From an uncultured delta proteobacterium (GTDB taxonomy: Bacteria; Myxococcota_A; Polyangia; Fen-1088), in contig CAWCMR010000025.1 in assembly GCA_963796685.1 (NCBI GenBank), positions 480,001-544,000 on the forward strand: a DNA stretch of 64,000 bases, given 5' to 3'. The position numbers and the translations under genes are program-made. Positions 499-7,769 of this stretch are shown piece after piece. Positions within the stretch are counted from its first letter, which is position 1; the number at the start of each line of letters is the position of its first letter. Under the pieces are notes generated by a model, which saw only the letters and a list, made by a program, of their open reading frames with translations, did not search any database and had not been told where the DNA came from.

Positions 499-1368
499 GT
501 GCCGAAGGACGTAGCGCTGGAGATTCGACAGCTGGTCCAGCGTGGTTTCGACCACCACGAGCACGAGCGGGTCCACGACGCCTTGTCGGACTGGGAGACC
601 GCCCTGCGCCTGGATGCGCGCAACGCGCAGGTCAAGCGGCTGGTCGAGTTCGCACGCCAACGCGTGATCGAGCTCGAAGCCGGGCAACACCCATCGCCGT
701 CGCGGCGGGACACCGTCGAGTCGCCCATCCCGCAGTTCCTGGCCGCCCTGACCGAGCGCAAGTCGGACAAGGTCTCGGTTCCCGCCAGTCCCTTGCAAGA
801 CGGCCCCACGGCCAAGAACGCGGTCGGCAATCGCGAGACCCCGGAGAACGATTGGAGCCTCCTGGGCGTGACGGGCGGCGAGGTGACGAGGAACGTGGCG
901 GGCCCTGGCGCCGACGACAGGACAGCGTCGGATACCCTCGAGGACTTGCCGGTGGACGCCGCGGATATCCGAGCCAGCGCGAACGAGCTCCTCGGCGAGT
1001 GTCGGGCGGCCCTCAACGAGAATCGCGCCGGTCCGGCCTCCTTGGCTGCAGAAATGGCCTTGCAGCTTGCCGAACGCGCCCCGCCGCCGGGCGTGGACGA
1101 GCTCATCGAGCCATCCATGGCACTGTTCGAGCGAGCCTTCCGCGCCTTCATGGGCAACCCCCACGCGTGTCCGATCCGCGCCATTGCCACCGAAACCATC
1201 TCCGACCATGGGCTCGACCAGCGCGCCGCCTTCCTGATGTCGCGCATGGATGGCATGACCAGCATGGCCGACCTGATCGACAGCTCCGGCATGCCGCGCT
1301 TCGATGCCGTACGCCTGATGGCTTCCCTGCGCCGGGCCAAGGCCATCGACATCCTGCCGCCTTTGTAA
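499..1368 (+). CDS. Hypothetical myxobacterial protein (N-terminal TPR-like helix pair, C-terminal winged-helix-like segment)
   Basis: 289-aa ORF with typical codon bias, 15 bp after dnaK. Segments ALSDWETALRLDARN and DQRAAFLMSRMDGMTSMADLIDSSGMPRFDAVRLMASL. Confidence 0.7.
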   Translation: MPKDVALEIRQLVQRGFDHHEHERVHDALSDWETALRLDARNAQVKRLVEFARQRVIELEAGQHPSPSRRDTVESPIPQFLAALTERKSDKVSVPASPLQDGPTAKNAVGNRETPENDWSLLGVTGGEVTRNVAGPGADDRTASDTLEDLPVDAADIRASANELLGECRAALNENRAGPASLAAEMALQLAERAPPPGVDELIEPSMALFERAFRAFMGNPHACPIRAIATETISDHGLDQRAAFLMSRMDGMTSMADLIDSSGMPRFDAVRLMASLRRAKAIDILPPL

Positions 1369-1402
1369 TGGGAACCCTGGAAGGTTCCCAAACCCTCCCG
1401 CG

Positions 1403-3477
1403 GTCGAGTAGCCAGGGGAGGTTACCCTCCCCCAGCTCTCACAGAACCGGACTTGTGGGCCTCACATCCGGCTCTTCGGGACGCTGGCGTTCGGGAGCGA
1501 CCCGTAGTCCAGCGCCGGCATTGCTGCCCGCAGCTATCCTGGCTCCAGGGCCGGGTCCATGAAGTCCAAGGCGTGATGGTCCTTCCACCGCTCGGCCAGG
1601 CTGACAAGCCCGCGTTCGGCAAAATATGCGTTGCGCAGTCCTCGTTCAACTACCGATGTGTGGCTCAGCGCCCACCAGGAGCGATGCCCCTTGTAGACCC
1701 CTTGCCACGCGGTTTTCGGTCTCACCCCCAGGCTGATGAGGTGTCGTGCGATGAAGCGTCTGCGTTTCCAGTGCCGTAGCACTATCGCTCGCAGCCGCCG
1801 CCTGATGTGTGCGTCGAGTGCCTGCAGCGTCCGCTCTTCCGCGGCCGTGCAGATACAGAAGAAGCCGATCCATCCGAGCAAATACGCGTTGACCTGTTTG
1901 ATGCAGCCCTTGAGGGACTGCCCAAGGTTTCGCGGCGTCAGCTCTCGGACCTTCTCGTCAATGCGGCTTTTGCTCCGCGCCGACAGCAGCACCTCCGCTT
2001 CCCCCGTCAGCGGCTCGCGCCGCAGCCGGAATCCCAGAAAGTGCCGCTCTTCCGGTCGGGCCACCGCGCTCTTGGCCAAGTTCACCTTCAACCGCATCCG
2101 GCCTTCGATGAACTTGACCACGCTGGCCATCACACGCTGACCCGAGCGCTCGCTTCCGACGTAGATGTTGCAGTCGTCCGCATAGCGCACGAAGCGGTGA
2201 CCGCGTTGGGCAAGCTCGCGGTCGAGCTCGTCCAGCACGATATTGCTCAGTAACGGCGAAAGCGGACCACCTTGTGGCACTCCTTCTTCCGTCGCCACCA
2301 CCACTCCGTCGGGCATCACCACCTTGGCTTTCAGCATCTGCCAGATGAGCTCGATGAGCCGCCGGTCCTTAACCCTCTGTTCTAGCCGCGCCACCAGCCG
2401 TTGCCAGTGGACCCAGTCAAAGAACTTTTCCAGGTCGAGGTCGACCACCCATTCGTACCCTTCCTCCAGATACTGCTTGGCCTCGGCGATGGCCGTGTGA
2501 CAGCTGCGCCCAGGTCGGAAACCGTGGCTCGACGGGTGAAACGTCGGCTCATAATGCGGACCGAGCACTTGGTGCACGGCCTGCTGAACCACGCGGTCCA
2601 CCACGTTCGGTATGCCAAGGCCCCGCCGCCCGCCACCGCTCTTCGGTATCCATACCCGCCGGATGTCTCCGACTCGGTATGTCCCGTCGAGCAGCGACCG
2701 CGACAGCGCCGGTATCAGCGTCCCCAACCCCTTCGCCACTTCCCCCACGCTTTGCCGGTCCGGTCCAGGTGCGCCTTTGTTGGCCTTCACTTGCTCGAAC
2801 GCTCTTTTCAGGTTTCCTTCGCTCGCTACCTCCTCCATCGTCATGGGCGGCAAGGTCCTCTCTTCCTCGTTCCCCGACTTCGGCACCTCGCTCCGCGCAG
2901 GCACGGGTTGGCCCGGATCCGCTTGGGCGGTGGACCCTTTCGGGTTGTCGGCTGTCTCGGGAAACAGTCCGAGCTGCCTTGCCTCTTTGCTGGCCGTGGT
3001 CGCCTTCCCTCCCCGCCTTCTGGCGGTTGGAACCGGCTTTCGCCGGCCTTCCGGTATTACGCGACCATCCGACTCCTCTTGTCCCTTCTTCATCTCGTCC
3101 TTTCGTTCTCGATGAATTCCGCTTGCGATTCCTCGCCGCGGAGGCCAAGAGGTCTCTCCGGGTAAGAACGCAGAACTTCGCACCGACTCCGTCGCCACTA
3201 CGCGGGCCGCCCGACGAATATTGGGCTTTGCCGCCGAAGGCCAGCTTGCCCAGCGGTACCCACGCCTTACGGCGCTTCACTTTCGTTCGGTTCGGCGCTG
3301 CACCATAGACTTCCACCAGACACCTCCTCGCGGGAGACGGGCCTTGCGGCCCGTCTGGCCTGGTGCTCCAGACCGGCGCCCTTGTCTCGTAGGTGGGAGG
3401 TTCCCTCCGTCAGGGTCCCCAGAGGACTTGGCTATTTCATGGCTTCACCTCTTGTTCTGCGTCCATGCCGGACGCAC
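1403..3477 (-). mobile_element. Group II intron, copy 1 (class C-like, 2075 nt)
   Basis: Minus strand begins GTGCGTCCGGCATGG at 3477. Domain V GAGCCGGATGTGAGGCCCACAAGTCCGGTTC (1474-1444), then a domain VI hairpin with bulged A, ending CTACTCGAC at 1403. Boundaries coincide, within 1 nt, with where identity to copy 2 stops. Confidence 0.95.
1534..3093 (-). CDS. ltrA: Group II intron reverse transcriptase/maturase, no endonuclease domain
   Basis: Motifs NKGAPGPD, RGLGIP, SHGFRPGRS, DLDLEKFFD, GVPQGGPLSPLLSNI, RYADD, and a class-C type end WWALS...AYFAERGLVSL. Start taken at ATG 3093 (AAAGGA 4 nt upstream); MTMEEV at 2844 is an alternative. Confidence 0.95.
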   Translation of the reverse strand: MKKGQEESDGRVIPEGRRKPVPTARRRGGKATTASKEARQLGLFPETADNPKGSTAQADPGQPVPARSEVPKSGNEEERTLPPMTMEEVASEGNLKRAFEQVKANKGAPGPDRQSVGEVAKGLGTLIPALSRSLLDGTYRVGDIRRVWIPKSGGGRRGLGIPNVVDRVVQQAVHQVLGPHYEPTFHPSSHGFRPGRSCHTAIAEAKQYLEEGYEWVVDLDLEKFFDWVHWQRLVARLEQRVKDRRLIELIWQMLKAKVVMPDGVVVATEEGVPQGGPLSPLLSNIVLDELDRELAQRGHRFVRYADDCNIYVGSERSGQRVMASVVKFIEGRMRLKVNLAKSAVARPEERHFLGFRLRREPLTGEAEVLLSARSKSRIDEKVRELTPRNLGQSLKGCIKQVNAYLLGWIGFFCICTAAEERTLQALDAHIRRRLRAIVLRHWKRRRFIARHLISLGVRPKTAWQGVYKGHRSWWALSHTSVVERGLRNAYFAERGLVSLAERWKDHHALDFMDPALEPG

Positions 3478-3845
3478 CTATGGCTACGCCGGGCAAAGCC
3501 CGGCTTCGCCTACGCGATCATGGGAACCCTGACCTGAAACACCTCGCCCCGCGCAGCGGAGCGAAGCGGGGAGGAGAAGGGTCCCATACCCTCGGCCCCT
3601 ACCCGCCACCCGCCACCCCGCTCGCTTCGCTCGGCCTCGCGCGCTATGGCTTCGCCAGGCGAAGCCGGCCTCCGCCTACGCGGTAATCGGAACCCTGGGA
3701 GGGCAGCCCTTTCAAGGTGCGGGCAGTGGCCGAGAGCCGCGCCTCTCCCCATCGGGGACAGGCCGCCGACGTCCGCGGCGGCGGGTGAGGGGTCCGAGGT
3801 GGGCGTGGCTTCTCTTCCCCTCTCCGGCCGCGCTTCGCGCGTCGG
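3478..3845. repeat. Spacer between the introns, made of nested palindromic (REP/RIME-like) repeats
   Basis: 54-bp direct repeat 3478-3531 vs 3644-3697 (9 mismatches by hand alignment). About 3712-3771 recurs at about 6007-6056, about 3605-3635 at about 6056-6086, and about 3533-3567 at about 42126-42161. Several GC hairpins. Confidence 0.8.
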
Positions 3846-5921
3846 GTCGAGTAGCCAGGGGAGGTTACCCTCCCCCAGCTCTCACAGAACCGGACTTGTG
3901 GGCCTCACATCCGGCTCTTCGGGACGCTGGCGTTCGGGAGCGACCCGTAGTCCAGCGCCGGCATTGCTGCCCGCAGCTATCCTGGCTCCAGGGCCGGGTC
4001 CATGAAGTCCAAGGCGTGATGGTCCTTCCACCGCTCGGCCAGGCTGACAAGCCCGCGTTCGGCAAAATATGCGTTGCGCAGTCCTCGTTCAACTACCGAT
4101 GTGTGGCTCAGCGCCCACCAGGAGCGATGCCCCTTGTAGACCCCTTGCCACGCGGTTTTCGGTCTCACCCCCAGGCTGATGAGGTGTCGTGCGATGAAGC
4201 GTCTGCGTTTCCAGTGCCGTAGCACTATCGCTCGCAGCCGCCGCCTGATGTGTGCGTCGAGTGCCTGCAGCGTCCGCTCTTCCGCGGCCGTGCAGATACA
4301 GAAGAAGCCGATCCATCCGAGCAAATACGCGTTGACCTGTTTGATGCAGCCCTTGAGGGACTGCCCAAGGTTTCGCGGCGTCAGCTCTCGGACCTTCTCG
4401 TCAATGCGGCTTTTGCTCCGCGCCGACAGCAGCACCTCCGCTTCCCCCGTCAGCGGCTCGCGCCGCAGCCGGAATCCCAGAAAGTGCCGCTCTTCCGGTC
4501 GGGCCACCGCGCTCTTGGCCAAGTTCACCTTCAACCGCATCCGGCCTTCGATGAACTTGACCACGCTGGCCATCACACGCTGACCCGAGCGCTCGCTTCC
4601 GACGTAGATGTTGCAGTCGTCCGCATAGCGCACGAAGCGGTGACCGCGTTGGGCAAGCTCGCGGTCGAGCTCGTCCAGCACGATATTGCTCAGTAACGGC
4701 GAAAGCGGACCACCTTGTGGCACTCCTTCTTCCGTCGCCACCACCACTCCGTCGGGCATCACCACCTTGGCTTTCAGCATCTGCCAGATGAGCTCGATGA
4801 GCCGCCGGTCCTTAACCCTCTGTTCTAGCCGCGCCACCAGCCGTTGCCAGTGGACCCGGTCAAAGAACTTTTCCAGGTCGAGGTCGACCACCCATTCGTA
4901 CCCTTCCTCCAGATACTGCTTGGCCTCGGCGATGGCCGTGTGACAGGCTGCGCCCAGGTCGGAAACCGTGGCTCGACGGGTGAAACGTCGGCTCATAATG
5001 CGGACCGAGCACTTGGTGCACGGCCTGCTGAACCACGCGGTCCACCACGTTCGGTATGCCAAGGCCCCGCCGCCCGCCACCGCTCTTCGGTATCCATACC
5101 CGCCGGATGTCTCCGACTCGGTATGTCCCGTCGAGCAGCGACCGCGACAGCGCCGGTATCAGCGTCCCCAACCCCTTCGCCACTTCCCCCACGCTTTGCC
5201 GGTCCGGTCCAGGTGCGCCTTTGTTGGCCTTCACTTGCTCGAACGCTCTTTTCAGGTTTCCTTCGCTCGCTACCTCCTCCATCGTCATGGGCGGCAAGGT
5301 CCTCTCTTCCTCGTTCCCCGACTTCGGCACCTCGCTCCGCGCAGGCACGGGTTGGCCCGGATCCGCTTGGGCGGTGGTCCCTTTCGGGTTGTCGGCTGTC
5401 TCGGGAAACCGTCCGAGCTGCCTTGCCTCTTTGCTGGCCGTGGTCGCCTTCCCTCCCCGCCTTCTGGCGGTTGGAACCGGCTTTCGCCGGCCTTCCGGTA
5501 TTACGCGACCATCCGACTCCTCTTGTCCCTTCTTCATCTCGTCCTTTCGTTCTCGATGAATTCCGCTTGCGATTCCTCGCCGCGGAGGCCAAGAGGTCTC
5601 TCCGGGTAAGAACGCAGAACTTCGCACCGACTCCGTCGCCACTACGCGGGCCGCCCGACGAATATTGGGCTTTGCCGCCGAAGGCCAGCTTGCCCAGCGG
5701 TACCCACGCCTTACGGCGCTTCACTTTCGTTCGGTTCGGCGCTGCACCATAGACTTCCACCAGACACCTCCTCGCGGGAGACGGGCCTTGCGGCCCGTCT
5801 GGCCTGGTGCTCCAGACCGGCGCCCTTGTCTCGTAGGTGGGAGGTTCCCTCCGTCAGGGTCCCCAGAGGACTTGGCTATTTCATGGCTTCACCTCTTGTT
5901 CTGCGTCCATGCCGGACGCAC
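3846..5921 (-). mobile_element. Group II intron, copy 2 (2076 nt, near-identical to copy 1)
   Basis: Same GTGCG...CTACTCGAC ends. Offset from copy 1 is 2443 before and 2444 after an extra G near 4946. Confidence 0.95.
3977..5537 (-). pseudogene. ltrA: Intron RT/maturase of copy 2, split by a +1 frameshift near 4946 (possibly a sequencing error)
   Basis: TGACAGGCTG here vs TGACAGCTG in copy 1. The two halves appear as ORFs 4860..5642 and 3977..5080. Confidence 0.85.
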
Positions 5922-6190
5922 CCTCTCCCCGCGTGCCCGCGGGGCGAGGCGATACGGCCGCTACGCGGCCCCCTACAAAACAGCGGTCGGGCTCAGAGAC
6001 GGGCTCTCAAGGTGCGGGCAGTAGCCGAGAGCCGCGCCTCTCCCCATCGGGGACAGCCACCCGCCTCCCCGCTCGCTTCGCTCGGCGGCGCCCTCTGGCG
6101 AAGCCGCGCGGGTGAGGCGGGGAGGTCGAGGTCCTGAAGCACCGACGAAGTCGGTGGGCATAGCCCGGCTACGTCGCTCCGCGTAGCCCT
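5922..6190. repeat. Continuation of the palindromic repeat array; hairpin directly 5' of intron copy 2
   Basis: CCTCTCCCCGCG-TGCC-CGCGGGGCGAGG hairpin at 5922-5949. Shares segments with 3605-3771. Confidence 0.7.
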
Positions 6191-6263
6191 AATCCCGGCA
6201 ATCCCGCGACAAGAAAGGCGACAGCGCGGAAGGCACCAGAAGGGGTCACCTTTCCACGACGGA

Positions 6264-6340
6264 CACGCGCACCCAATCGGAGCGATGACGGGTAGTCGTG
6301 GACGTGGACGGCTTACCGTGGCCGTGGCCGTGGCCGTGGC
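6264..6340. repeat. Dispersed (CGTGGC/CGTGGA)n-containing element, copy A
   Basis: Reverse complement matches 41436-41495 (both translate as HG[K/E]PSTSTTTRHRSD). Partial third copy near 52541-52571. Confidence 0.75.
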
Positions 6341-6575
6341 GATCACAAGCGAAACCACGGCCGCAACAACGACCTTCTGCGGCTATCGCGGGATGATGGC
6401 GTAGCTCCGCGCAGCGAGGCGGGACCGGGGGACTGCGAGCGAGAGCGAGCCAGTCCCCCGCAAGATACAAGGGGCTCTGCCACGCTTCTGCGCACCCTCG
6501 GCTCGGGCTCGCGGTCCGACCTCTACGTCCTCTTTTCCGCTCTCTGCGCCCTCTCCTTGTGGTAAGTCGTCGGCC

Positions 6576-7769
6576 ATGAAGATCGTGCTCGCATACTCCG
6601 GGGGACTCGATACTTCCGTCGTCATCGGCTGGCTGCGGGAGAAATACCAGGCCGAGGTCGTGGCCTTTTGCTCCGACGTCGGCCAGCAAGAGGATCTGGA
6701 AGCGGCCCGCAAGAAGGCCCTGGCCTGCGGCGCCATCGCGTGCCACGTGTACGACCAACGCGACGAGTTCGTGCGCGACTTCGTGTATCCGGCGGTGCGT
6801 GCCCAGGCCATCTACCAGGGCGAGTACTACCTCGGTACCTCGCTGGCCCGGCCGTGCATCGTGCGCGGCATGATGGAGGTCGCGGCCAAGGAAAACACCC
6901 ACGTCATCTCGCACGGATCCACCGGCAAGGGCAACGATCAGGTGCGCTTCGAGCTCGGTGCCTACTGGTTCAACCCGCAGGTGAAAATCATCGCGCCCTG
7001 GCGCGAGTGGGACTTCAAGTCGCGCTCCGAGCTCATCGCCTTCGCGCATTCGCACAACATCCCCGTGGAAGCCTCCACGGCCAAGCCATACTCCATCGAC
7101 CGCAACCTGCTGCACACGAGCTACGAGGGTGGCATTCTGGAAGACCCCGACAAGGAGCCCCCGGCCGAGATGTTCCAGCGCACCGTCGATCCGCGCAAGG
7201 CGCCCGACCAGCCGCGCGACGTGGCCATCAGCTTCGAAAAAGGCACGCCCGTCGCCGTCGACGGCAAGGCCATGGGTCCGGCCGCGCTGCTCACAGAGCT
7301 GAACAAGCTCGCCGGCGAGCACGGTGTGGGCCGCGCCGACGTGGTGGAAGATCGCTTCGTGGGCATGAAGAGCCGCGGCGTGTACGAGACACCAGGCGGA
7401 ACCGTGCTCTACAAGGCCCACCGGGGCGTCTCCTCGCTGACCATGGACCGCGAGTCCATGCGCCTGCGCGACACCTTGGCCGTCGAGTATTCCACCCTCG
7501 TCTACCGCGGCTTCTGGTTCTCGCCCGAGCGCGAAGCCTTGCAGAAGCTCGTCGACACCATCAACGAGCCGGTCACCGGCACCGCGCGCTTACGCCTCTA
7601 TAAGGGTGGTCTCACCCTCATCGGCCGCAGCGCCCCGAAGTCGCTGTACCGCGCCGACATCGTCACCTTCGAAGACGACGGCGGCGCCTACGACCAGCGC
7701 GACGCGGGCGGCTTCATCCGCCTGAACGCGCTTCGCCTGCGCACCATGGCGAGCATTCGCGCCAAGTAA
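6576..7769 (+). CDS. argG: Argininosuccinate synthase
   Basis: LAYSGGLDTS, HGSTGKGNDQVRFE, SIDRNLLHTSYEGG, GMKSRGVYETPGG. Confidence 0.98.
   Translation: MKIVLAYSGGLDTSVVIGWLREKYQAEVVAFCSDVGQQEDLEAARKKALACGAIACHVYDQRDEFVRDFVYPAVRAQAIYQGEYYLGTSLARPCIVRGMMEVAAKENTHVISHGSTGKGNDQVRFELGAYWFNPQVKIIAPWREWDFKSRSELIAFAHSHNIPVEASTAKPYSIDRNLLHTSYEGGILEDPDKEPPAEMFQRTVDPRKAPDQPRDVAISFEKGTPVAVDGKAMGPAALLTELNKLAGEHGVGRADVVEDRFVGMKSRGVYETPGGTVLYKAHRGVSSLTMDRESMRLRDTLAVEYSTLVYRGFWFSPEREALQKLVDTINEPVTGTARLRLYKGGLTLIGRSAPKSLYRADIVTFEDDGGAYDQRDAGGFIRLNALRLRTMASIRAK

Follow-up and report, generated by a model that had tools for sequence, protein, structure and literature searches.

Two neighbouring copies of a predicted class C group II intron behind different repeat-borne hairpins in an uncultured delta proteobacterium

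The window considered here is a stretch of 64,000 nucleotides (nt) from an uncultured delta proteobacterium (Myxococcota_A, Polyangia, Fen-1088), corresponding to positions 480,001 to 544,000 of the forward strand of contig CAWCMR010000025.1 (C25) in the assembly GCA_963796685.1. The genome is a 7.31-Mb draft of 26 contigs with 65% GC, 88.6% completeness and 6.5% contamination, and the window belongs to its 2.1-Mb contig C25. Positions 1403-5921 of the window carry, on the minus strand, two copies of one group II intron. Each copy features one match to the Rfam family of domains 1 to 4 (D1-D4, RF02001) and one to the family of domains 5 and 6 (D5-D6, RF00029). The following features make up the pair; coordinates without a contig name refer to the window.

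1403..3477, minus strand: intron copy 1, 2075 nt, intact reading frame; ends by BLAST of the copy against the genome, junctions by empty paralogous sites
1403-1476, minus strand: RF00029 match (D5-D6) of copy 1, 46.6 bits
1444..1474, minus strand: domain 5 of copy 1, 31 nt, AGC triad; placed by the RF00029 alignment and comparison with relatives
after domain 5, up to the 3' splice site at 1403, minus strand: domain 6 of copy 1
1534..2853, minus strand: reverse transcriptase (RT)/maturase encoded by copy 1, ~439 amino acids (aa), no endonuclease domain
3167-3337, minus strand: RF02001 match of copy 1, 79.7 bits, full model
3478..3845, no strand: spacer between the copies, 368 bp, all multi-copy short repeats (families A, C, D and others, see below)
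3846..5921, minus strand: intron copy 2, 2076 nt, 99.8% identity to copy 1, RT frame broken by one extra base
3846-3919 and 5611-5781, minus strand: RF00029 and RF02001 matches of copy 2, 46.6 and 79.7 bits
4944..4950, minus strand: CAGCCTG, one extra base amid the palindrome CAGCTG, frameshift of copy 2 (alignment column 975)

Read on the minus strand, both copies start with GTGCG at the 5' end and finish with CTCGAC at the 3' end. They differ at four alignment columns, among them the additional base of copy 2, whose coding region is split into two open reading frames (ORFs; 3977-5080 and 4860-5642). The preliminary description of this DNA had reported two near-identical group II introns 368 bp apart, whose identity stops at the intron ends save for one base on each side, with 5' exons ending in G and 3' exons starting with C. 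All of this is confirmed by the alignment, the shared bases being a G upstream and a C downstream. Its further statement that the pair is not a segmental duplication holds insofar as the identity ends at the introns; nevertheless, some short dispersed repeats recur in both 5' flanks at unequal offsets (3709-3768 and 6004-6063 at 92%, 3605-3645 and 6056-6096 at 88% identity). Judged by their sequence, these repeats are members of genome-wide families located at differing distances from the introns and do not indicate a segmental duplication.

Class C (group IIC) introns were described to feature a short pairing of 3-4 bp between exon-binding site 1 (EBS1) and intron-binding site 1 (IBS1) and to lack EBS2/IBS2, relying instead on a stem-loop of the 5' exon at a distance of 3-11 nt or less from the insertion site (PMC1702495; published sources are cited throughout for those parts of them that were available). 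The 554-aa ORF of copy 1 is matched in Pfam only by RVT_1 (residues 184-392) and GIIM (412-481), and the same search gave no match past GIIM and no DNA endonuclease (HNH) domain. With the NCBIfam equivalog for group II RT/maturases, TIGR04416, the protein reaches 369.9 bits. The protein probably starts near 2853, and the longer ORF reaching 3198 would not be translated, as the extension 2854-3198 (115 codons) has a non-coding-like GC share at third codon positions (GC3) of 0.66 compared with 0.77 for the rest. The class of the protein was judged by similarity to all solved structures and not by a tree. Here, the RT of GsI-IIC was matched over its full length (368 bits, E 7e-109), followed by the maturase 7uim of a IIC ribonucleoprotein (RNP; 296 bits), two IIC RT fragments (about 240 bits), the IIA protein LtrA (131 bits) and a IIB maturase (83 bits). 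Moreover, RF02001 scores 140-145 bits in the Anoxybacillus, Heyndrickxia, Bacillus and Geobacillus-type relatives of GsI-IIC and can therefore be regarded as a model of IIC D1-D3. Sequence comparison thus assigns the intron to class C, with a protein nearest to IIC RTs, no endonuclease and D1-D3 RNA of the IIC type. For the epsilon' region, an 11-nt bulge with a conserved AGGAA was described in IIC introns (PMC1702495); by sequence comparison alone, this place is taken by TCTGAAGGAAG in relatives and by TCTGGTGGAAG here, one base from AGGAA.

A BLAST search of the genome with copy 1 revealed 11 full-length copies of 99.81-100% identity, which vary at 7 of 2077 alignment columns, and the full open frame is kept in seven of them. 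The recent activity proposed in the preliminary description is well founded on these figures. One copy starts at base 2 of its own contig, leaving ten copies with a 5' flank, and their 5' exons end in GGAG (four copies), GAAG (two), ATAG, AGAG, GAGG and TAGG (one each). The first base of the 3' exon, which class C introns pair with EBS3, is C in eight, A in two and T in one of the 11 copies. Copy 1 shares two variants with a family A copy at C25:1.38 Mb, ~900 kb off, and not with copy 2. A second close pair is located at C8:379444-381518 and 381598-383672, where identical copies occupy adjacent identical 79-bp units. An extra base at the same CAGCTG palindrome is carried by four of the 11 copies (window copy 2 at 4944-4950, C25:1381851-1383927, C13:680090-682165 and C12:26453-28528), namely C in three copies and G in the fourth; each form is the reverse complement of the other, and the RT frame is broken by the insertion. 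Since its pattern does not track the other shared variants, the extra base may be a systematic assembly or sequencing error (e.g., at a methylated motif) or else a mutational hot spot. Besides the full-length copies, a 147-nt fragment at C25:1550098-1550238, 4.6 kb from a full copy, resembles the intron 3' end (D5-D6) at 88% identity and probably represents the remnant of an older insertion.

Upstream of the two window copies, on the same strand, two different hairpins are found.

3482..3510, minus strand: target hairpin 1 (family A), 7-bp stem GCCGGGC/GCCCGGC within an outer GGC/GCC stem
5922..5949, minus strand: target hairpin 2 (family D), CCTC-G-CCCCGCG GGCA CGCGGGG-A-GAGG

Folded as DNA, hairpin 1 together with its tail (GGCGAAGCCGGGCTTTGCCCGGCGTAGCC + ATAG, 3510-3478) reaches -12.8 kcal/mol (z -3.67) and hairpin 2 (CCTCGCCCCGCGGGCACGCGGGGAGAGG, 5949-5922) -14.8 kcal/mol (z -3.89), and in either case 0 of 200 shuffled sequences was as stable. 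The BLAST search with the intron and the 60-nt flanks of every copy, which had been proposed as a check, revealed an upstream hairpin in all ten copies with a 5' flank. A T-tract after the stem is absent from the 10 occupied and from 86 empty sites, and a consensus terminator scan of 1200-6700 detected no terminator at either hairpin and one site in total (6666-6649), compared with 4.2 expected in shuffled sequences. Likewise, the IIC-attC pattern (attC bottom strand, TTGT/T) is absent from the junctions, which read GRRG/C with the variants ATAG, AGAG and TAGG, and no integron is present in the window context. Thus, the earlier view of two different hairpins free of U-tracts and attC-type ends, used by an intron that homes in a class C-like manner after stem-loops, is supported, and the further copies in this genome do not sit mostly behind ordinary terminators or in unstructured DNA.

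An empty site was defined as a place in the genome at which both 60-nt flanks of a copy, each searched separately by BLAST, abut exactly without the intron. Altogether, 86 exact empty paralogous sites were found in five repeat families, to which the family of the tenth flanked copy is added below.

Family A: 39 empty sites; 80-bp unit, arrays of up to 8; holds window copy 1 and one other copy
Family B: 10 empty sites; end of an IS110-family element; holds two copies
Family C: 21 empty sites; holds two copies
Family D: 12 empty sites; holds window copy 2
Family F: 4 empty sites; 79-bp tandem array; holds two copies
Family E: 0 exact empty sites, repeated flanks (15 and 3 BLAST matches); holds the tenth flanked copy, beside a phage-type integrase gene

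Nine of the ten flanked copies lie in repeat families that also comprise intron-free members, and the insertions were therefore independent and precise. The number of BLAST matches to the flanks ranges from 11 to 118 per family. Tandem arrays have a period of ~80 bp, and the repeats form patches of 50-600 bp with single-copy DNA on either side. The target repeats are short imperfect intergenic palindromes present in many copies and often clustered, as is typical of repetitive extragenic palindromic (REP) sequences and bacterial interspersed mosaic elements (BIMEs). The preliminary description had called the targets REP/RIME-like palindromes serving as safe landing sites. The first part of this statement is supported by the nine of ten flanked copies in families of 10 to >100 copies and by the missing T-tracts. 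Nevertheless, in one family the repeat is formed by the end of an IS110-family element, and a search for RAYT (Y1 transposase, PF01797) yielded no match in the 88.6%-complete genome, the control search having matched six of 14 named genomes; because no RAYT gene was found, 'REP-like' is a structural label that describes form only. The second part, the safe landing site, cannot be separated from selection acting after insertion.

The hairpin of family B ends an element of ~1.1 kb which is present in seven copies and encodes an IS110-family transposase. At C11:74300-75900, the ORF at 375-1562 on the minus strand of the retrieved locus identifies such an IS110-family element (DEDD_Tnp_IS110, Transposase_20), with the intron lying antisense in its non-coding end, a few bases from the start of the longest ORF. 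Ten intron-free copies of the IS110-element end at family B were observed. Tandem arrays of hairpin units occur at C8:379081-383891, C25:2111413-2112067, C25:1799238-1799649, C21:64109-66065 and C11:48759-50174 with periods of ~79-80 bp, 372 bp and 435 bp. Their building blocks are short modules (GGGAACCC...GGGTTCCC and GCCGGGCTTTGCCCGGC) which are also present singly elsewhere, and no RAYT gene that could account for their spread was found in the genome.

The repeats are intergenic, and REP-type elements are able to affect transcript ends. Both points favor an explanation in which the hairpins act as U-less ('I-shaped') terminators or have a regulatory role and the element is an ordinary terminator-homing class C intron, as does the known occurrence of class C introns behind L-shaped as well as I-shaped predicted terminators (PMC8919778). 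Nevertheless, the window hairpins are antisense to the genes on both sides, the same units are present at 10 to >100 sites and form tandem arrays with up to 8 members, and one family consists of IS110-element ends, which renders this explanation rather unlikely.

The choice of sites was further approached by an alignment of relatives. From 77 loci encoding protein relatives (43-71% identity, many phyla), shifted duplicates, spurious motif matches and rows with N were dropped, and the 5' parts of the 34 remaining introns were aligned. An 8-nt loop of a D1 hairpin (GC-NNNN-NN) covaries with the final four nucleotides of the 5' exon: on average, 3.48 of 4 positions pair compared with 1.77 +/- 0.19 in shuffled sets, and 0 of 10000 shuffles reached the observed value. 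The 34 introns contributed 25 distinct EBS1/IBS1 combinations and 18 distinct EBS1 tetramers to this test. On the basis of this covariation, the loop is identified as EBS1. A first guess by eye, a loop near intron nt 70-90, was dropped, as the covariation favours the loop at nt 237-244. The predicted pairing partners in the window are as follows.

3236..3239, minus strand: CUUC at intron nt 239-242, predicted EBS1 of copy 1; part of the D1 hairpin loop GCCUUCGG (8 nt)
3478..3481, minus strand: predicted IBS1 of copy 1, ATAG, pairs at 2/4 positions, weakest of the 10 sites
5680..5683, minus strand: predicted EBS1 of copy 2, CUUC, same position as in copy 1
5922..5925, minus strand: predicted IBS1 of copy 2, GAGG, last four bases of hairpin 2, pairs at 4/4 positions

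With CUUC as EBS1, an exon end of GRRG is predicted, i.e., a purine tail and not the T-rich tail of a terminator. In this genome, seven of the 10 sites pair at 4/4 positions, two at 3/4 and one at 2/4. Relatives from Firmicutes feature an A-rich EBS1 (AAUA, ACAA, AUGA) and classical terminators with T-runs, and acidobacterial and alphaproteobacterial relatives an EBS1 of AACG and hairpins followed by TTCGTT. Six loci from different Acidobacteriota genomes (L041, L050, L055, L061, L065 and L073) were observed to have nearly the same 5' exon, ACGCG-N-AGCGTCCGCCGC...GGCGGCT-N-CGTT, in the 45 nt before the intron, which suggests either a conserved repeat as target or a hairpin moving with the intron.

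The orientation of the copies was related to replication by means of dnaA (C25:1360437-1360961) and the minimum of the cumulative GC skew (~1.37 Mb). The sense strand coincides with the locally GC-skew-positive strand in 10 of the 11 copies, and the RNA therefore entered the lagging-strand template. The eleventh copy, on the plus strand ~12-21 kb right of the origin, has an orientation consistent with the lagging-strand template as well. Among the 86 empty sites, the strands are represented 42 to 30 with 14 ambiguous, or 28 to 25 when counted as distinct loci. As empty sites are unbiased and occupied sites biased, the bias resides in occupancy and not in the targets; a hand estimate gives 0.58^11, i.e., ~0.003, or ~0.008 without two possibly dependent copies. 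A bias toward the lagging-strand template is known for endonuclease-less introns (PMC8919778, PMC10190682).

The surroundings of the pair in the window consist of repeat DNA enclosed by two genes.

499..1368, plus strand: flanking protein gene without Pfam match, opposite strand to the introns, ends 35 bp from copy 1
1369..1402, no strand: 3' exon of copy 1, other half of the family A unit (CGCGGGAGGGTTTGGGAACC...), matches the empty-site alignments
5922..6520, no strand: multi-copy short-repeat cluster upstream of copy 2, ends ~55 bp before argG
6576..7769, plus strand: argG (argininosuccinate synthase), transcribed away from the introns

The gene at 499-1368 shows a codon-position GC of 0.70/0.48/0.86, which fits the coding pattern of the genome, and argG is recognised by Pfam (Arginosuc_synth, E 3e-63; Arginosuc_syn_C, E 1e-81) with a GC3 of 0.89. 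As both genes are on the plus strand, both introns are antisense to both neighbours. According to their codon-position GC, the minus-strand ORFs 6246-7421 (391 aa) and 480-1391 (303 aa) are antisense shadows of argG and of the gene at 499-1368, respectively; such shadows are common at 65% GC and easily mislead gene prediction. On the 3' side of copy 1, 64 BLAST matches are found in the first 50 nt, followed by unique sequence; the spacer 3478-3845 has 16-99 matches per 50-nt bin throughout, and the cluster upstream of copy 2 has 14-62 matches per 50-nt bin over 600 nt and is single-copy beyond. With the introns removed, everything from 1368 to ~6520 is repeat DNA (34 bp + 368 bp + ~600 bp). 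The closeness of the two copies is accordingly explained by a repeat cluster of ~1 kb that offers several landing pads.

The two window copies are regarded as independent events, as had been proposed before, because their families differ (A and D, with 39 and 12 empty sites), because they differ at four columns and because the variants of copy 1 point to a distant copy. A local duplication of one insertion, or unequal recombination, is conceivable in principle given the identical pair on C8, whose arrangement in adjacent identical 79-bp units is obtainable by recombination. Nevertheless, the flanks in the window derive from different repeat families, the identity ends at the intron boundaries, and copy 1 has its variants in common with the distant copy and not with copy 2, so that such an origin of the window pair is hardly credible. 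An assembly artefact, in which one copy or the copies of different strains were wrongly set side by side, has to be considered as the assembly has the look of a binned draft (completeness 88.6%, contamination 6.5%) and as four of the 11 copies carry the suspicious extra base at one palindrome. In addition, no public sequencing run holding the locus was found: the best one, among runs that are all soil, wetland or peat metagenomes, contains 0.26 of the sampled words of window positions 3380-3950. Still, the copies differ at four positions and have different flanks with unique junctions, both flanks run into single-copy genes within the 2.1-Mb contig, and ten other junctions in the genome are equally precise. 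An artefact is thus very unlikely.

If the intron behaves like the IIC introns characterised so far, its excised RNA, in complex with the endonuclease-less RT, would reverse-splice into single-stranded DNA, presumably on the lagging-strand template at replication forks. The DNA stem-loop would be recognised by its shape together with the ~4 following bases via EBS1-IBS1; in a cryo-EM study, the IIC particle was found to hold the DNA stem-loop (PMC10190682). An EBS1 of CUUC would impose a purine tail (GRRG) after the hairpin. In this genome, the occupied hairpins are those of short intergenic REP-like repeats, some of them tandem, and of the end of an IS110-family element. In the window, the ~1-kb repeat cluster between the plus-strand gene and argG provides several landing pads, two different ones of which were hit.

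The supply of such sites was assessed by a strict target model (perfect 6-bp stem, loop of 3-13 nt, GRRG, then C). It yields 485 sites in the genome, 355 of them single-copy and 102 in repeats of at least 5 copies. At least 182 sites are coding-looking; out of the 303 not coding-looking ones, 101 lie in repeats of at least 5 copies. Occupied sites are found in repeats far more often than this supply predicts, an enrichment that can be estimated only roughly because the model accounts for only 4/10 real sites and because no more than 50% of random windows are flagged by the coding filter. The distribution could also reflect survival, with insertion at any hairpin followed by GRRG and persistence only in dispensable repeat DNA. 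The numbers of candidates agree with this, since 355 of 485 are single-copy and only 102 lie in repeats of at least 5 copies, and since an insertion would do harm at the at least 182 coding-looking ones. Likewise, IIC recognition was described as structure-based with relaxed sequence needs (PMC7306698, PMC10190682). On the other hand, none of the at least 180 single-copy candidates that are not coding-looking is occupied, as counted with a crude classifier and a model covering 4/10 sites. Survival as the cause of the repeat-only distribution is therefore possible but doubtful, and it complements site choice by hairpin and purine tail rather than excluding it.

The protein lineage of the intron is common beyond this genome. 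Protein relatives of 73-94% identity are mostly located on ~2-kb metagenome contigs from soil and wetland, and Sorangium species encode relatives at ~75% identity. Seven metagenome contigs contain an intron with the same first 22 nt, and the 5' flank was long enough to fold in six. Strong hairpins (z -4.65, -3.66 and -2.96), followed by CGAG, GAAG and CGAG, respectively, precede the intron at three of these six sites, one of which (L085) lies in a family-A-like repeat. A T-run after the site is absent from all six. The 5' flanks of relatives are multi-copy as well, with 28 matches in a Planctomycetota chromosome and 18 in an Acidobacteriota genome, of which 13 and 3, respectively, are full length at >=93% identity. 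As a side observation, related IIC introns in other genomes also cluster. In the Planctomycetota chromosome L007, three RF02001 matches are located within 3.3 kb (1008-1178, minus; 1768-1938, plus; 4073-4243, plus); in L068, around 4321, a new intron 5' end directly follows the 3' end of another intron, and in L069, around 4003, an intron junction contains a masked N run.

Several observations weigh against independent insertion of a class C intron at repeat hairpins with a GRRG tail. Domain 5 reads GAGCCGG here and thus has AGC, whereas CGC in place of the AGC triad was described for IIC introns (PMC1702495, PMC7923331). CGC (GAACCGCCG) is present in 11 of 12 relatives examined, GAGCCGG being found only in the Bdellovibrionota relative L003; with 31 nt, the domain is moreover 3 nt under the Rfam consensus. 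Window copy 1 has the poorest IBS1, with 2/4 positions paired. The distance between hairpin and site varies: in families A, B and F the stem is directly followed by IBS1, whereas in C, D and E the stem base and IBS1 overlap; the spacing is therefore flexible. The strict target model fits only 4/10 occupied sites, and the C8 pair may be a recombinational duplication rather than the product of two events, because its two introns are the same in sequence and so are the neighbouring 79-bp units that hold them. Both the tandem arrangement and the frameshifts are known only from a draft assembly of the completeness and contamination given above. Furthermore, the other three foldable metagenome sites (two flank types, with AGCA and GAGT ends) have no stable hairpin (z +1.30, -0.32 and -0.65), and an EBS1 of CUUC, whatever that of the copies concerned may be, would not pair with their ends. 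Together with the multi-copy flanks of relatives, these sites imply that the repeat habit is not unique to this genome and that the hairpin rule is not absolute in the lineage. Considering all this, the window elements are interpreted, with a probability of roughly 85%, as independent insertions of one recently active class C intron at sites composed of a hairpin and GRRG within repeats.

More tentatively, and with less than even odds, the intron could represent a distinct IIC sublineage, recognisable by AGC in domain 5 and by an EBS1 that is pyrimidine or mixed, that has left terminators with T-tracts and mainly uses purine-tailed REP-like palindromes of GC-rich bacteria. If so, this sublineage would occupy a third IIC target niche beside terminators and attC sites, and repeat clusters would act as renewable landing pads, which would explain side-by-side copies. 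The genome offers a case in which four RNA bases, CUUC in place of an A-rich EBS1, appear to have redirected a hairpin-homing retroelement from terminators to purine-tailed repeat hairpins. Moreover, the 86 empty and 10 occupied sites form a natural target set on how the IIC RNP reads a hairpin, including stem length, spacing and an IBS1 inside the stem. With regard to annotation, such introns and repeat clusters break assemblies of GC-rich drafts and create long false ORFs.

The known mechanism is left unchanged by these findings, as the homing mechanism is the known IIC one, and both the REP association and U-less hairpin targets have precedents. A review names two types of IIC targets, intrinsic terminators and attC sites (PMC4424553), and class C introns were found after L-shaped (U-tailed) and I-shaped (U-less) predicted terminators without preference (Miura et al., 2022, PMC8919778). 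As far as these sources extend, the novelty is narrowed by the latter study and by a table in PMC1525189, the repeat hairpin as landing site being less usual. No IIC lineage devoted to REP-like repeats was described in the literature searched, with most subscription journals and supplements being outside the search. The terminator-homing IIC introns, such as B.h.I1 of Bacillus halodurans and GsI-IIC of Geobacillus stearothermophilus, share with the present intron the protein class without endonuclease domain, the D1-D3 matched by RF02001, a 4-bp EBS1-IBS1 pairing in the same loop, a stem-loop just before IBS1 and the lagging-strand-template bias (PMC8919778 for the bias). In contrast, their EBS1 is A-rich and their tail a T-run, whereas EBS1 is all-pyrimidine (CUUC) and the tail GRRG here; they target gene-end terminators instead of multi-copy repeats, and their domain 5 features CGC instead of AGC. 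A longer non-coding part of domain 4 precedes the protein start in the present intron. Their niche, in which a stem-loop plus T/U tract closes a gene of the same orientation, is not the one found here, as the window introns are antisense to their neighbours. The IIC-attC introns (e.g., S.ma.I2) are comparable as a IIC sublineage that moved from terminators to repeated imperfect hairpins on one strand, but the attC consensus and the TTGT/T motif described for them (PMC7923331) are absent here, where IBS1/IBS3 reads GRRG/C. The nearest precedent for the repeats is the group II intron of Pseudomonas putida KT2440, listed as REP-associated in 2/9 copies in the table of Tobes and Pareja (2006, PMC1525189), which, like the REP-associated IS110-family elements of the same source, represents a mobile element landing in repetitive extragenic palindromes. 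Unlike in that case, one target family is here itself the end of an IS110-family element and a RAYT gene was not found; furthermore, nine of ten flanked copies lie in repeat families, and the pairing rule behind the choice could be identified.

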